A program made the position numbers and the translations under genes. DNA of 64,000 nucleotides from an uncultured bacterium (lineage in GTDB: Bacteria > Zhuqueibacterota > QNDG01 > DTFT01): positions 1 through 64,000 of the forward strand of contig CAVTNR010000001.1 in assembly GCA_963736115.1 (NCBI GenBank), given 5' to 3'. The notes beneath the pieces are model-generated. The model worked only from the letters and a program-made list of their open reading frames with translations, ran no database searches and was not told the DNA's origin. Positions 11,250 through 33,065 of the stretch are shown piece after piece. How positions within the stretch are numbered: position 1 is the stretch's first letter; every line of letters starts with the position of its first letter.

Positions 11250-13627
11250 ATGGGCAAACGGATCACGCTTCTTTTCATGGTTTTAACGGGCCTGTACGGC
11301 CGCTTTCAGCCAGACAGGGTCCATACGCGGAACCGTGCTGGACGGGGAAAGCCGCAGGCCTGTGCCTGGAGCGAGCGTACTTCTCAAGGACACGCCCCTG
11401 GGCGCGGCCGCGGATACTGCAGGGAACTACTTCATCCCGTCCGTGCCGGTCGGCTCGTACCGGGTCGAGTTCGTGTGCGTCGGGTACGAGAAGCGGACTG
11501 TGACGGACGTCATCGTCAAGTCCAACCGGACGGCTTTTGTGAACGCGGACATGACAATCAAGGCAGTGCAGGGCCAGGCGGTCAACGTGTCCGCCGGGTA
11601 TTTCAAAACGTCCGCCGCTGAGCCGGTCAGCGTTCATTCCCTGAATTACGAGGAAATCCGCAGGGCGCCAGGGGCGCGCGAGGACGTCAGCCGCATGCTC
11701 CAGAACCTGCCGGGCGTGAACCCGACCTCGGACGACCGGAACGACCTGGTGATCCGCGGGGGCAGTCCGACCGAGGTGCTCTTTCTGATGGACCGGATCG
11801 AGATTCCCAATCCCAATCACTTCGGCACGCAGGGCGCCACAGGCGGTCCGATCAGCATGATCAACACGGAATTCGTGGAAAACATGACCTTCATGTCCGG
11901 CGGTTTCACTTCGGAGTACGGCGGAAGGGTTTCGGGCGCCATGGACATCCGGCTCCGCGAAGGCAACCGCTTCGCTTATAACGGGAAGGCGGACCTGAGT
12001 TTCGGGGGCGCGGGCGGGTACCTGGAGGGCCCGCTGGGAAAGGGGAAGGGGTCGTTTCTCGTGGGGGTGCACCGGAGTTTTCTGGATGCGCTTGACGGAT
12101 GTGCTGAATTACGGCGGCACGCCGATCTATTCAAACACCCAGGGTAAGATCGTGTACGACCTGAACAGCAGGAACCGGGTGTCCTTTCAATGGCTCGGCG
12201 GGGACGACAGGATCAACATCGGGTACGAGGTCGAAAAGAACGATTTTGCCGCTGGCCGGCCGGACACGGCGGATTACCAGAAAGTCGATTTCAGGTCGCG
12301 CCAGCTCACTGCAGGCGTGAACTGGCGGTCGTTCTGGGCGGGTGATTTTTACACGCAGTTCACCCTGTCGCATTCCTACAACCGGTTCTACACGGACGTC
12401 AATGGGGTGGGCATCGCGGCGGAGAACGCGGACGGAAAACTGATCAATCGTTCCCGTGTGTTCGAAACCGGAGTGTATGACAATACGTCTACTGAAAACA
12501 TCTCCATCGCCAGGCTGGACGCGGACTGGCGGATCGGCCCAAGGGCCTCGCTCTCGTTCGGCGGCCACGTGAAACTGAACCGGTTCGACCATGACATCGC
12601 CTATGTTCCCCTGTACCCGGACGACCCGGACGCTTTCGGGCAGAAGCCGCTTCCGCTCGGAATCAAGTTCCGCCAGGAGACGACGCCGAAATCAGGAGCC
12701 TACGTCAATCTCAAGACCAGGCCGTTCACCCGGCTGACCTGCAACATCGGCGGCCGCGTCGATCAGTTCAGCCTGCTCGGAGAAACCAGTTACAGCCCGA
12801 GGTTCAACGCGTCATACGACGCGAGCGAAAGAGTCGAGTTTCACGGGGGAGTCGGCCGTTTTTATCAGAACCCGGAGTTCATCTTCATCACAAGCTCCCC
12901 CTCGAACCGGAAGAGCCTCAAGGACATTCAATGCGACCACTTCATCGCTGGCATGAACGTTCTGCTGGCGCCGAGCACTCGCCTGACGCTCGAGGTTTTC
13001 AGGAAGAACTACGACCGATACCCGGTGTCCGCGGACAGCGGGTACGAGATGATCTCAACGGCAAACACCGGGTCAGAATACGGGAGCAACGGCTATTCCG
13101 GCAAACTGGCGAGTCTTGGGCAGGGCAAGGCGGCGGGCGTGGAACTGCTGGTTCAGAAGAAAATGTCTGACCGGGTGTACGGACTCGCGTCGTATTCCCA
13201 TTCGGTGGTGCGGCACAAGGCCCTGGACAATGTGTTTCGCGACGGCGCATTCGATAACCGGAACGTGTTCAGCCTTGTGTTCGGGTGGCGTAAGAGCAGG
13301 AGCTGGGAGTTCAGCGCCAAATGGCGCTATGCGGGCGGAACGCCGTACACGCCGTACGACCGGCAGGCTTCGATCGCCGCGAACGAGGGCAGGCTCGACC
13401 TCTCCCGCGTGAACGAGAGCCGGTATCCCGATTACCACAGGCTCGACCTGCGCGTGGACCACAGGGAATACTACAGAAAGGGCTCGCTGGTCGAGTATTT
13501 CTCGATCGAGAACGTGTACGGCAGGCAGAACGTGCTGAACGGCTTTTGGAGCAACAGAAAGCAGGGGATGGATTTCAATTATCAGACCGGGTTTTTCATT
13601 ATCGGGGGGGTCAGTTACGAGTTTTGA
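11250..13627 (+). CDS. TonB-dependent receptor with carboxypeptidase-regulatory-like N-domain; two frameshifts
   Basis: Signal peptide, GSIRGTVLD, plug LQNLPGV..RGG, GGFTSEYGGRVSG, beta-barrel ending in YEF. ORFs 11335-12147 and 12086-13627. Confidence 0.9.
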
Positions 13628-13642
13628 ACGTGATTGGTCCGG

Positions 13643-13680
13643 AAACGTGCGACGCGCCTTGAAGCGTGCGTCGCACGTTT
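13643..13680. repeat. REP-like palindrome family C (GTGCGACGCACCTT-N-AAGGTGCGTCGCAC)
   Basis: AAACGTGCGACGCGCCTTGAAGCGTGCGTCGCACGTTT; relatives at 58281-58309 and 62525-62553. Confidence 0.75.
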
Positions 13681-13695
13681 TATTTGAAAACCGGC

Positions 13696-13807
13696 GGAAC
13701 CGGCTTGCTTTTTCGGCTTTTTATGCCTAATTTTGTTACAGATTCACGTGCGGAAATAGAAATCACCGTACCCATCGACTCCTTCGAATCGCATCTCTGG
13801 TTAATCA
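13696..13807 (+). repeat. ~113-bp duplicated promoter/leader, copy 1 (TTGCTT-N17-TAATTT)
   Basis: Near-identical to 14547-14659 (a handful of substitutions and one indel); lies upstream of the ORF6N gene. Confidence 0.9.
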
Positions 13808-13836
13808 ATTTATCCAAATTCATGAGTTCAGATGTA

Positions 13837-13869
13837 TTTGAACTGTTGCAATTTGTGCAACAGTTCAAA
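13837..13869. promoter_or_regulatory. Intergenic palindrome matching the palindrome inside the RhuM coding sequence
   Basis: TTTGAACTGTTGCA-ATTTG-TGCAACAGTTCAAA (perfect 14-bp arms); compare 15027-15063. Confidence 0.7.
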
Positions 13870-13914
13870 ATGAAATCCTGACAAACGGGAGGGTTTCTGA
13901 AAGACGTGACGGTT

Positions 13915-14502
13915 ATGGATGAACGGAACGATATCCGGCAGTGCATTTTTACGGTGCGCGGTAGAAGGTGATTCTCGATTCGGATCTCGCGCGACTCTAT
14001 AGGTGTCAAGACCAAGGCGTTAAACCAGGCAGTCATCCGAAATAAGGAACGTTTTCCGTTGGATTTTGTCTTCAGGATCACAGCCGAGGAATGGCTTTAT
14101 TTGAGGTCACAAATTGTGACCTCAAACGGGAAGAATGACGGTCCGGGCGTAGCGGTCGGTTCTGGAAGCGGCGGAAGACGGTTTCTTCCCTATGTTTTCA
14201 CGGAACATGGCTCGATCATGGCGGCCTCGGTCTTAAACAGCAACGAGGCTGTGAAAATGAGCGTAATCGTCGTCCGGGCTTTTATCCGAATTGAAGTTGA
14301 TGAATACGGAGAATCATGAGCTGGCACAAAAACTGGCCGAATCGGAAAAGATGATTACCGCCCGCCTGATTCACATGAAAGGGCCATGGTTCATGTACTT
14401 GAACAGATATTACGATTGATCAATCCTCCTCCCTTGCCTGAACCGCCGAAGAAGAAAATCGGCTTTCATGTTAAGGAAAAGAAAATGACTTATCATTTTT
14501 GA
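13915..14502 (+). CDS. ORF6N-domain DNA-binding protein; frameshifted
   Basis: [74 protein letters not shown], C-terminal PPKKKIGF; several 1-nt indels. Confidence 0.85.
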
Positions 14503-14546
14503 GATAATATTCATGGATAACCTTCCGCGGTCCGGGGGGGATTGCT

Positions 14547-14659
14547 GGAACCGGCTTGCTTTTTCGGCTTTTTATGCCTAATTTTGTTACAGATCCACGT
14601 GCGGAACTAGAAATCACCGTACCCATCGACTTCCTCGAATCGCATCTCCGGTTTAATCA
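14547..14659 (+). repeat. ~113-bp duplicated promoter/leader, copy 2
   Basis: Near-identical to 13696-13807; lies upstream of the RhuM-Fic gene. Confidence 0.9.
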
Positions 14660-14761
14660 TTATGCATAATCGTCGATCTGCGGTCTTTTCGATCGCAGGT
14701 GCGGGTTTTTTCAACGATATCCATCTGTCGAGTTACGGGAAATCCAATGAACGTTTCCAGA

Positions 14762-15938
14762 ATGGGGAAGAAGACGGTTCCGGGAAAAAGCAGAACCGGA
14801 AAGTCCGTGAAGCGGATCGTAGCCGAGGCAGGCGCGGTTTATGGCCGGCCCGGCGGAGAGGTGGTGCTGTACCGCGCGAAGGACGGCGCGGTGACACTCG
14901 ATGTCCGGCTCGTGCAGGAGACGATCTGGCTCAAATTAAAACAGATAGCCACTCTGTTTGACCGCGATAATTCCGTAATCTCGCGTCACATCAATAATAT
15001 TTTTAAATCTAAAGAATTGGACCGAATTTCAACTGTTGCATTATTTGCAACAGTTCAAAATGAGGAAGATCGTTCAGATCACGGCGGTTGAATATTATAA
15101 TCTTGATGCCATTATTTCGGTCGGTTACCGGGTCAACTCGAAACGCGGCACCCAGTTCCGCATCTGGGCAACGGCTGTACTGCGGGACCATATCCTGAAA
15201 GGCTATTCAGTCAATGTCCGTCGTCTGGAGGAATTGCAGAAAACAGTCCGTTTGATTGCGCGGGTTGCCGGCCGTCCGGATCTATCCAATGATGAGACAT
15301 CCGCGCTGCTCAGGGTCATACGAGACTACAGCGTCGCGCTGGATCTTCTGGACGATTACGATCATGGCCGATTGCCGGCTTTGGACGGAATCCGGAGAAC
15401 AGCCCATCCCCTGGAATATGAAGAGGCGAGGCGTCTGATCGATCGATTGCGGAGCCATTTTTCCGCCGGCGAACTCTTCGGACTCGAGAAAGACGAAGGG
15501 TTGAAGGGCGCTCTGGCCGCGGTCATGCAGACCGTGGACGGACAGGATGCCTATCCGGGTCTGGAGGATAAGGCGGCGCACCTCCTGTATTTCGTGACGA
15601 AGGATCACGCGTTCGTGGACGGGAACAAGCGGATCGCCGCTTCGCTGTTCCTCTGGTTTCTGGAGAAAAACGGCGTTCTGTATCTTTCCGAAGGGGAAAG
15701 GCGGATTTCGGAAGCGGGCCTGGTCGCATTGACCCTGATGATCGCAGAAAGCCGGCCCGCGGACAAGGAGATCATTATCCGCATTGTCATCCGTCTGCTT
15801 CAGGGTCGTGCGGATCCGGAGGAGCAGGAAAGAACCTCCCGCGGGTTGGCACAAATCCGCTGGCAGGCTGAACCAGCGCCCAGTCCGGCCGCGGAGCGCC
15901 TGAAACGGCGTTTCCACGCGGAGCGTGGGAACGAGTAA
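14762..15938 (+). CDS. RhuM-family N-domain fused to Fic/Doc domain; one frameshift near 15065
   Basis: [47 protein letters not shown] (RhuM) and [11 protein letters not shown] (Fic). Start codon uncertain (14747 or 14762). Confidence 0.88.
15891..15935. repeat. REP-like family D (GCGGAGCGCCTGAA..GTTCCCACGCGGAGCGTGGGAACGAG)
   Basis: Overlaps the 3' end of the Fic ORF; relatives at 26571, 27736-27843, 28282, 28986. Confidence 0.7.
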
Positions 15939-15988
15939 CGCGAAGTCATGAGCCGAATAGTCACAATTATTCGATAAAGGAGAACCTG

Positions 15989-16933
15989 ATGTCCCATCTT
16001 TCTGAACGATTCCGGCCTTGCCTGTTGCTCGCTTCGATACTCCTGTCGGGTTCCTTGACGGCTCAGCAGGAAGCGGATACGTTGTTCAAGCCCAATGTGG
16101 GAGCGCCTGCGTTCAAAACGGGTGAAGGGCCAGTCGTATTGATCGACGAGGGACACAATAACTTCCACACCATGAACGGCCGGTACCTGGCCTTCAGCCG
16201 CCTGCTGAAACGGGACGGGTATGTCGTGGAACCGCAGGTCCGGACGGTTTTTACGGGCCGACCTCGATCGGGCAGGGATTCTGGTTATTTCCAACGCGCT
16301 GGCGAAGGAGAACGAGGACCGAATGGAATCTTCCGACGCCATCGGCCTTTGATTCCGCGGAAATCGTAATCGTCCGGGACTGGGTGAAGGACGGGGGATC
16401 ACTCTGGCTCATCGCGGACCACATGCCCTTTCCCGGCGCGGCTGGAGACGCTGGCCGCTGAGTTCGGAATTCGCATGGGGAATGGCTTCGCGCTCGACTC
16501 TGTTGATGGGGCCGGCCGGATGCGCTTTTCCCGCTCAGACGGCTCGCTGGCGGATCATCCGGTCACGGGAGGAAGGAACACCGCGGAGCGCGTCGACTCG
16601 GTGATCGCGTTCACGGGCCAGGCATTCCGGCTCGAAGGGCAGGGAGACCCCTTGATGACATTGCCGGGCGGCACCGTCCTGCTCATGCCGGAAGCCGCGT
16701 GGCAGTTTTCGAAGGAGACGCCGCGCCTGGACGCGTCCGGAATGCTGCAGGGCGCGCTGGTCCGTTTCGGCAAAGGGCGTGTCGCAGTGTTCGGTGAAGC
16801 GGCCATGTTTTCCGCGCAGGTGTCCGGTCCGGAACGCAGGCCCGCGGGAATGAACGATCCGACCGCTCCGCAGAACGCCCAGTTTCTGCTGAACGTACTG
16901 CATTGGCTGAGCGGTTTGTTGCAGGGGGGGTAA
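15989..16933 (+). CDS. Secreted DUF4350/GATase-like hypothetical protein; frameshifted
   Basis: Signal peptide, [58 protein letters not shown] across ORFs 15989-16369 and 16475-16933. Confidence 0.7.
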
Positions 16934-26528: not shown

Positions 26529-26595
26529 AACCTCCCGCGGATTTTTACCGATCCGCGGGAGGTTTTTTCTGGTTCCCACGCTCCGCGTGGGAGCC
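26529..26595. repeat. Family B palindrome (terminator-like) followed by family D palindrome
   Basis: AACCTCCCGCGGAT-N8-ATCCGCGGGAGGTT plus TTTT; GGTTCCCACGCTCCGCGTGGGAGCC. Confidence 0.75.
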
Positions 26596-27735: not shown

Positions 27736-27843
27736 GGTTCCCATGGTCTCTGTGGAAACCCGCTTTTTAGACGCTCCGCGTCCTTCATGAAAAAGCGCGG
27801 AGCGCCTGAAGAATTGCGTTCCCACGCGAAGCGCGGGAACGAG
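27736..27843. repeat. Family D REP doublet (REPIN-like)
   Basis: GGTTCCCATGGTCTCTGTGGAAACC..GACGCTCCGCG..CGCGGAGCGCC..GTTCCCACGCGAAGCGCGGGAACGAG. Confidence 0.7.
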
Positions 27844-28281: not shown

Positions 28282-28329
28282 GCGCAGAGCGCCTGAAAAC
28301 AAAGTACCCACGCGGAGCGTGGGAACGAG
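28282..28329. repeat. Family D REP-like copy
   Basis: GCGCAGAGCGCCTGAAAACAAAGTACCCACGCGGAGCGTGGGAACGAG; a degenerate copy is at 28986-29033. Confidence 0.7.
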
Positions 28330-32998: not shown

Positions 32999-33035
32999 GC
33001 GGGGTGATTATGACGACCCCGGGGTTTGAGGACCG

Positions 33036-33065
33036 TTTACGGACACAAATGGTGACCTCAAACGG
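33036..33065. repeat. Degenerate copy of the ORF6N internal palindrome
   Basis: TTTACGGACACAAATGGTGACCTCAAACGG versus 14100-14129 TTTGAGGTCACAAATTGTGACCTCAAACGG (26/30 identical). Confidence 0.65.

Follow-up and report, generated by a model that had tools for sequence, protein, structure and literature searches.

The window analysed here (the first 64,000 nucleotides of contig CAVTNR010000001.1, assembly GCA_963736115.1, from an uncultured bacterium of the Zhuqueibacterota) carries, between positions 13696 and 15938, an ORF6N gene and a RhuM-Fic gene, each with a palindrome inside its own coding sequence. From the comparison of homologous genes we infer that the helix-turn-helix (HTH) domain of each protein probably reads the palindrome lying in its own gene. 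The site would be a two-fold symmetric stretch of 25–27 bp recognised by a dimer of the N-terminal HTH domain. The codons that cover it would then be doubly constrained, having to specify the beta-strand that follows the HTH and, at the same time, the bases of the palindrome, third positions included. Both the physical binding and the consequences of binding are predictions made from sequence.

The palindrome of the ORF6N gene (14100–14126) consists of two 13-nt arms around one central base, with 13 of 13 pairs complementary; it is centred on a first codon position and encodes LRSQIVTSN, and none of 100 shuffles gave a match. That of the RhuM-Fic gene (15027–15059) is complementary at 13 of 14 pairs and is centred on a third codon position. 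Its core, with 10-bp arms, lies at 15031–15055 and fits the geometry of the RhuM family (12 + 1 + 12), the two innermost pairs being mismatched. An earlier note on this DNA had described both inverted repeats, with perfect 13-bp arms and with 10-bp arms, respectively, and they are indeed present in the two genes. The note also stated that each palindrome recurs outside its gene, at 13837 and at 33036. This is correct for the former: between the upstream element A (described below) and the start of the ORF6N gene, the RhuM-Fic palindrome stands once more on its own at 13837–13869, where its 14-bp arms are perfect and its half-sites are spaced as in the gene. The segment 13836–13873 is 89% identical to 15026–15063, and a contig from another metagenome spans 13751–13875. 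As for the latter, the recurrence is partial: the intergenic sequence at 33025–33065 (forward strand) is a remnant of ORF6N codons, with LRTQMVTSNG in frame, in which the right arm is kept (33044–33065 matches the right half at 21 of 22 positions) and the left arm has decayed. Genome-wide, the RhuM site is found, with up to two mismatches, at 13841 and 15031 only, i.e., in its own gene and 1.2 kb upstream; the ORF6N site, with up to three mismatches, is found at 14101 only.

Comparison with near relatives reveals changes that affect both arms at once. The RhuM-Fic site of genome G001, which is of the same genus as the window, is CAGTTGTTGCA-TTTTT-TGCAACAACTG, that of the window AACTGTTGCA-TTATT-TGCAACAGTT; between the window and G001 the outer three bases are replaced on both arms (ACT..AGT by GTT..AAC), so that the encoded Thr..Val becomes Val..Thr. 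At the place syntenic to the window's ORF6N gene, all that remains in G001 (G001:C314) is a 55-nt piece of ORF6N, whose end coincides with the right-hand limit of a perfect palindrome. An ORF6N gene carrying the same site with one mismatch is present in G016, which belongs to another family, and the window's ORF6N 27-mer occurs also in a viral locus (L179).

The conservation of the palindrome was then evaluated across the RhuM family, using 28 loci from the phylum to which the window belongs, the window itself, G001 and a further 80 loci that represent many bacterial phyla and one archaeal metagenome-assembled genome (MAG); two loci from unpublished genomes were left out. Alignment to the family profile yielded 113 open reading frame (ORF) segments, in each of which the best single-base centre was searched in the 22 codons preceding the YYNLD motif, scoring 12 pairs. 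The number of Watson-Crick pairs is 12 for 39 segments, 11 for 38, 10 for 18 and lower for the remaining 18; thus at least 10 pairs are formed in 95 of the 113, compared with 0.57% of 1222 windows when the rest of the RhuM genes is searched in the same way. The centre coincides with a third codon position in 98/113 ORFs, either 15 or 18 codons ahead of YYNLD. Among the 93 distinct sites with this type of centre, 1028 of 1116 pairs are Watson-Crick, and the pairs between third codon positions number 3.77 out of 4, against 1.22 after synonymous resampling. At least two types of Watson-Crick pair are found at 8 of the 12 positions. The encoded peptides are diverse (TVAKFATV, TIRKFRIV, TCKEFLQV, VVRKFRTT, TVSKMETV). 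Their mirrored residues form fixed couples (Thr-Val, Ile-Ile, Arg-Arg, Ala-Ala, Lys-Phe/Leu and Cys-Gln), because a centre at the third position makes the first two bases of mirrored codons complementary. Three loci (L139, L108 and L055) contain two RhuM genes or gene fragments with palindromes of different classes, which in L108 lie on opposite strands.

A similar picture emerges for ORF6N, for which 30 loci of the phylum and 80 loci from viral contigs gave 98 ORFs with 51 distinct sites. The palindrome (13 + 1 + 13 over LRSQxVTS) has at least 10 of 13 pairs in 46 of these sites and is centred on a first codon position in 45; overall, 11.33 of 13 pairs are observed versus 5.52 after synonymous resampling. 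Hence, in both families the sequences differ, the two arms change together and third codon positions pair. The proposal of the earlier note that homologues differ in this peptide segment and yet retain a palindrome in the DNA is therefore borne out. The mismatches are informative as well. A stem formed by the sense strand of an RNA tolerates G.U but not A.C, while among the mismatched pairs we count 25 G.T versus 20 A.C in RhuM, and 11 G.T versus 25 A.C in ORF6N. Since G.T is not favoured over A.C, and since pairing continues up to a single central base, the constraint acts on the symmetry of double-stranded DNA and not on RNA. Such a symmetry is what a dimeric binding protein requires.

Which part of the protein could read the site? 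In the AlphaFold2 (AF2) model of a typical RhuM protein (L063), three strands are followed by a helix (residues 39–46), a second helix (50–62) and a long beta-hairpin (72–81 and 84–93); the palindrome encodes residues 71–78, which are modelled as the first strand of this hairpin. For 91 distinct RhuM genes, mutual information was calculated for all combinations of a protein column with a site position. Outside the strand encoded by the palindrome, the most informative columns are residues 55, 51, 50, 52, 48, 49 and 54, which belong to the turn and to the first six positions of helix 50–62 (positions 1, 2, 3, 5 and 6). Positions 1, 2 and 6 of the HTH helix are the classical base-contacting positions. 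The residue preceding a conserved His goes with site positions d5/d4: it is Glu in 29 of 34 CG sites, Arg or Lys in 17 of 17 GC sites, and Leu, Gln, Met, Ile or His in 32 of 34 AA sites. Likewise, the first residue of the helix goes with d8/d7, being Lys in 38 of 42 GT sites, Val or Ile in all 18 AT sites and Arg or Pro in 22 of 25 TG sites. The two rules combine freely, 8 of the 9 combinations being seen in a tally of the gene listing. In ORF6N, where the global mutual information is swamped by relatedness, we used a single-residue table instead: d4 can be predicted from the residue at the Gln of ALNQAVKRN in 44 of 45 genes (Gln with A/T, 28/28; Glu with G/C, 9/10; Arg or Lys with C/G, 7/7). 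Both genes of the window obey these rules. The codons for the turn and the helix start of the RhuM-Fic HTH (14960–14989, forward strand) include an Arg before the conserved His, paired with the GCA core of the site, and those for the ORF6N HTH helix (14011–14043, forward strand) include, at 14026–14028, the Gln whose counterpart in the site, at d4, is A/T.

These associations were evaluated for RhuM by an independent-pairs test on a tree built without the trait columns. For Glu with CG, 9.9 of 14 pairs changed in the same direction and none in the opposite one (median p 0.002); for Lys with GT, the figures are 14.1 of 15 and none (p 1e-4), for the Leu class with AA, 6.9 and none (p 0.016), and for Arg/Lys with GC, 5 and none (p 0.06). 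The crossed controls, in contrast, were null (3.9 vs 4.0, 2.2 vs 3.2 and 2.1 vs 0.9; p 1). Furthermore, the site can vary with the helix while the encoded peptide stays the same. For the identical peptide TIR..RIV, three DNA variants match three helix variants (3 + 3 + 3); across all RhuM sites of the Arg class, the synonymous position d3 is G/C with Glu (29/29) and A/T with Tyr (4/4); and in TVK..LTV the synonymous pair at d6 is GTC..TTG with KQN helices (nine cases) and GTT..TTA with other helices (three cases). The covariation between helix residues and site bases fits the suggestion of the earlier note that the palindrome is the protein's own operator. On the other hand, the part of its suggestion in which the palindrome-encoded peptide is itself the recognition element is not supported: the tracking residues are at the start of the HTH helix, 16–21 residues (RhuM) or about 27 residues (ORF6N) before that peptide, which the AF2 model places in the first strand of the beta-hairpin after the helix and whose residues follow the DNA.

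Copies of the site also exist without the gene. An exact match to one common RhuM-class site (24 specified bases) was searched for in 2.9 million viral contigs and returned 20 loci, of which six are in RhuM genes, one is beside gene fragments and 13 are without RhuM. For these 13, no RhuM match was found within 450 nt or anywhere in the record (0/13), while both positive controls were found; four of the 13 records are estimated to be at least 92% complete. The six stand-alone sites that were read closely lie between, or at the ends of, predicted genes. In L235, L236/L250 and L247 a second site of another RhuM class is adjacent or overlapping, and in L241 and L252 the arms reach 18 bp. Genes found nearby encode SSB, reverse transcriptase, DNA methyltransferase and HNH nuclease, and in L248 the site adjoins a putative tRNA gene. 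In one 144-kb viral record with terminal repeats (L258, G176:C1:76400-81400), the site is flanked by an SSB gene and a small ORF, and a reverse-transcriptase-like gene lies two genes away. As for the ORF6N site, 10 of its 12 occurrences in viral contigs are in ORF6N genes and two are stand-alone. A shorter RhuM pattern with five free central bases gave 29 viral loci, 17 of them without RhuM; these are not counted here, as several fall in unrelated coding sequence (e.g., LLQKLQQL coiled coils).

Matches over 24 bases are beyond chance; the viral sites would be either phage targets of RhuM or captured decoys. In the latter case, the in-gene palindrome may be an antidote or "self" site for RhuM, RhuM-Fic and ORF6N, on which the protein is inactive or autorepressed, and which phages have captured as a decoy; we put this forward tentatively, as an idea with a minor share of the probability. 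If it were true, arrays of different sites would amount to multi-specific anti-defence DNA. Taken together with proteins that read a site in their own gene, the stand-alone sites carried by phages would raise the possibility of DNA decoys as an anti-defence strategy.

Several points weigh against the proposed reading of the palindrome by the HTH that the same gene encodes. The quality of the AF2 model is low, with a predicted local distance difference test (pLDDT) score of 64.8 overall and of 58–90 over residues 21–120 in blocks of 10 residues. The tree test for ORF6N is not significant (p 0.125–0.25), with three to four independent pairs per trait. Helix and site are about 20 codons apart, so swaps of N-terminal modules move both and inflate the tree counts; this objection can be answered with the position-specific pattern and the null crossed controls. 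The bases of the site also fix the residues of the strand, so that packing between helix and strand could be behind part of the code. The synonymous cases speak against such an explanation, although they are few and may be related. Both genes are frame-broken in the assembly, and therefore the arrangement seen in the window may be dead. Finally, when 1.5 kb around the genes was examined, one of 91 loci besides the window (L143) had its own site a second time, about 70 nt before the start and with 17-bp arms; the window is thus among the rarer cases. Since extra copies of the own site are so uncommon, these genes do not as a rule follow the scheme of a classical promoter operator, and what binding would do to regulation is a guess. 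In L056 and L069 a stand-alone site of a different class is located just 3′ of the RhuM stop codon.

Other explanations of the palindromes were considered. They could be fragile or recombinogenic DNA, extruding as a cruciform or as a single-strand hairpin and providing junctions for cassette exchange, deletion or mobility, a role from which their conservation would follow. Several observations would fit rearrangement breakpoints, which are possible at these positions: gene remnants end at the edges of the palindrome, both in G001 (the 55-nt ORF6N remnant of G001:C314) and in the window, where the remnant at 13836–13873 is the palindrome plus 1 and 4 nt; the differences that separate the window from G001 cluster in some 45 nt directly after the palindrome; and stand-alone sites are found right after RhuM stop codons (L056, L069) and beside a putative tRNA gene (L248). 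However, breakpoints would explain neither why helix residues predict the bases of the site position by position nor why the exact sequence is kept within classes across phyla, and no recombinase or transposase accompanies these genes in the loci that we read. As the sole explanation we consider it doubtful; a bound site can, on the other hand, serve as a breakpoint too, in which case both readings hold together. The earlier note had also envisaged a hairpin substrate for diversification, and nothing points to such a device.

Stems that vary in sequence while compensatory changes preserve their pairing are the textbook mark of a structured RNA, so the palindrome might act as a hairpin of the mRNA that affects stability, causes translational pausing or binds a regulator. 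Yet, besides the mismatch counts given above, complementarity extends up to a single central base, which is unusable as a loop (79 of 93 pairs are formed at d1), the sequence itself is conserved within classes, intergenic copies in phages (L241, L252) are symmetric beyond the coding core, with arms of 18 bp, and Rfam gave no match; an RNA element is thus very unlikely. It is less likely still that the palindromes have no function at all. A change in one arm can be carried over to its partner by template switching in the absence of selection, and such quasi-palindrome correction could keep an accidental palindrome, while the correlation between helix and site would reflect shared ancestry. That the stand-alone copy is sometimes the more perfect one (14/14 pairs at 13837 versus 13/14 at 15027) is in line with this mechanism. 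Against it, the position is held across many bacterial phyla and one archaeal MAG, and a palindrome is found in a second family without detectable homology (hhalign probability 0.2%); the crossed tree controls are null, with the matched pairs all in one direction; and exact 24-base sites recur in viral genomes without the gene.

If, as we favour, the HTH reads the palindrome of its own gene, the most likely effect would be that a defence or toxin protein is kept in check on its own DNA. This could be achieved by autorepression, a control that the gene would carry along wherever it lands, by neutralisation at the cognate site, as in the case of BstA and aba (see below), or by both. The in-gene site would then be a control element that moves with a wandering single-gene cassette into any operon. 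In the window, where the RhuM-Fic site is present also in the ORF6N leader, RhuM-Fic could in addition act on ORF6N.

The two genes follow a TonB-dependent receptor gene and its terminator-like palindrome, and, as reported in the earlier note, each is placed in tandem behind a copy of the same element. The copies, of 107 nt and 95% identical, are at 13696–13802 (copy A, before ORF6N) and 14547–14653 (copy B, before RhuM-Fic), both on the forward strand, and each would comprise a promoter and a leader. No third copy was found by BLAST in the whole 3.34-Mb assembly. The element contains the sequence TTGC-N19-TAATTTTG, whose G001 counterpart (71% identical, before RhuM-Fic) is TTGC-N19-TACTTTTA, suggestive of a Bacteroidota-like -33/-7 promoter; a scan of the locus for sigma-70 promoters and terminators gave nothing above shuffles, and Rfam had no match in 13000–16500 at E up to 1. 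The consensus fold of the leader, drawn from two sequences, which are too few, has two small hairpins. A contig of a relative has one element, with the RhuM-Fic start 90 nt later, and in another the element is ahead of a diverged ORF6N gene. These contexts indicate that the element is an upstream region common to both gene types in this lineage, which has been locally duplicated here. It is no sign of a joint machine.

The proposal of a new two-gene system consequently finds no support: in G001 the element stands before RhuM-Fic alone and a 55-nt remnant is all that is left of ORF6N at the syntenic place; in G020 the two gene types occupy different slots of a type I restriction-modification (R-M) operon (G020:C47, locus L304, G020:C47:1-9000), with the order hsdM, ORF6N, hsdS, RhuM, hsdR; and PADLOC lists them as single-gene candidates.

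The ORF6N gene (13916–14502, forward strand) was identified through PF10543, with an E-value of 4e-9 on an 86-aa piece (37.1 bits, above the gathering score of 27.8) and of 1.8e-18 in a six-frame search of the genome (68.2 bits, model positions 22–86), and through the PADLOC model PDC-S05 (2.2e-17). In this assembly it is not contained in a single frame, as about four frame changes occur near 13968, 14003, 14290 and 14370. The RhuM-Fic gene (14748–15938, forward strand) encodes an N-terminal HTH domain followed by PF13310 (Virulence_RhuM; 8.4e-20) and by a Fic/DOC domain, PF02661 (8.5e-12), while its C-terminal part matches PDC-S23 (1.2e-98). The PF13310 match (71.6 bits, cut-off 33.7) covers only positions 19–71 of the 252 of the model; that of PF02661 (46.2 bits, cut-off 24) covers positions 2–93 of 93. 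Since the remainder of the RhuM model is replaced by the Fic domain, the protein is of the RhuM-DOC fusion type rather than a full RhuM. One frame change is found, just 3′ of the palindrome, near 15062; the G001 orthologue, 84% identical, is intact and matches PDC-S23 with 8.7e-125. The flanking genes are likewise split, that at 11335–13627 near 12100 and that at 15989–16933 between 16369 and 16475. Frame breaks in the locus and in its flanks suggest either many assembly indels or widespread decay. Among public sequencing runs the best share of words was 0.13, none covers the locus and no RNA run is listed; no contig of the relatives spans the frame-change sites; and the length of stop-to-stop ORFs gave no indication of assembly indels either way, the genome being GC-rich. 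No solved structure was matched in the sequence-based search, and Foldseek found nothing in the PDB at E ≤0.001, the best hit being DdrC (3e-3) with a low template modelling (TM) score. The idea that the two palindromes occupy homologous positions of one domain was dropped on the hhalign comparison of the RhuM N-domain with ORF6N mentioned above.

The locus contains further palindromic sequences. A terminator-like hairpin with a T run is located at 14676–14710, in the stretch of leader that separates element B from the start of RhuM-Fic; its stem is partly kept in G001, and it could be an attenuator. A palindrome resembling repetitive extragenic palindromic (REP) sequences, GTTTCCACGCGGAGCGTGGGAAC, occurs four times in the window with up to three mismatches (15910–15932, 26572–26594 on the reverse strand, 27818–27840 and 28304–28326) and never in shuffles. 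Its first copy supplies the last codons of the RhuM-Fic ORF, about 40 codons beyond the end of the G001 orthologue, and look-alikes are found in other genomes of the phylum. The terminator-like palindrome 3′ of the TonB receptor gene (13642–13680) has look-alikes of about 87–97% identity in many places of G001, G003, G010, G016 and G027, and so looks like a second family of dispersed palindromic repeats of the lineage.

Defence islands and type I R-M operons frequently contain genes of the RhuM, RhuM-Fic and ORF6N types. If our reading is correct, it provides a predicted site for every homologue together with a simple residue-to-base code, and it would explain the odd, variable short peptide segment of these proteins. 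It would also show plainly how a DNA signal can mould a coding sequence to the same degree as the encoded protein does.

Binding sites located inside the gene of their own binder have precedents, as in the case of the lambda ori iterons in gene O, parS in parB/spo0J and auxiliary operators such as lac O2. In these systems, too, the site is embedded in the codons of the own or of a neighbouring gene. However, they are individual, fixed sequences, whereas the RhuM and ORF6N site occupies one spot throughout the family and changes in sequence with the helix that would read it. In the literature on RhuM, ORF6N, PDC-S05 and RhuM in restriction-modification or defence, supplements aside, we found no description of in-gene palindromes. 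RhuM-like and Fic/DOC genes have been described in type I R-M operons, and RhuM, which frequently occurs as a fusion with DOC, has been proposed to act as a toxin (Anantharaman et al., 2013; PMC3710099); the portion of that article available to us does not mention palindromes, and the genes of the window are outside any R-M operon. In PADLOC, the ORF6N and RhuM types (PDC-S05) and the RhuM-Fic type (PDC-S23) are each a single-gene candidate, and the window matches both. One PDC-S05 gene with a RhuM domain protects E. coli B about 1000-fold against T7 and T5, and also against T4, according to the accessible part of the report (bioRxiv 10.1101/2024.09.26.614923), whose description of PDC-S05 contains, to that extent, no mention of an in-gene site.

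The closest parallel is offered by BstA, for which we rely on the available sections of the original study: the DNA element aba, which extends into the beginning of bstA, neutralises the cognate protein (Owen et al., 2021; PMC8585504). As in our case, a phage-defence protein with an N-terminal DNA-binding domain is associated with a short element in its own locus, which is partly coding, acts as DNA and is homologue-specific (PMC8585504). The differences are equally clear. According to the same sections, aba measures 63 bp, comprising 29 bp upstream and the first 34 bp of the gene, and requires terminal direct CCCGCC repeats (PMC8585504), so that it is not a palindrome, whereas the sites of the window are palindromes about 60–95 codons into the gene, whose bases covary with HTH residues. 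Moreover, BstA is described there as having a KilA-N-like domain, while the pieces of the window genes gave no KilA-N match in a Pfam scan with E up to 0.01. If the HTH of RhuM and ORF6N proteins does read the palindrome of its own gene, the principle that BstA and aba exemplify, namely the coupling of a defence protein to a cognate DNA element within the same locus, would be extended to much larger families.

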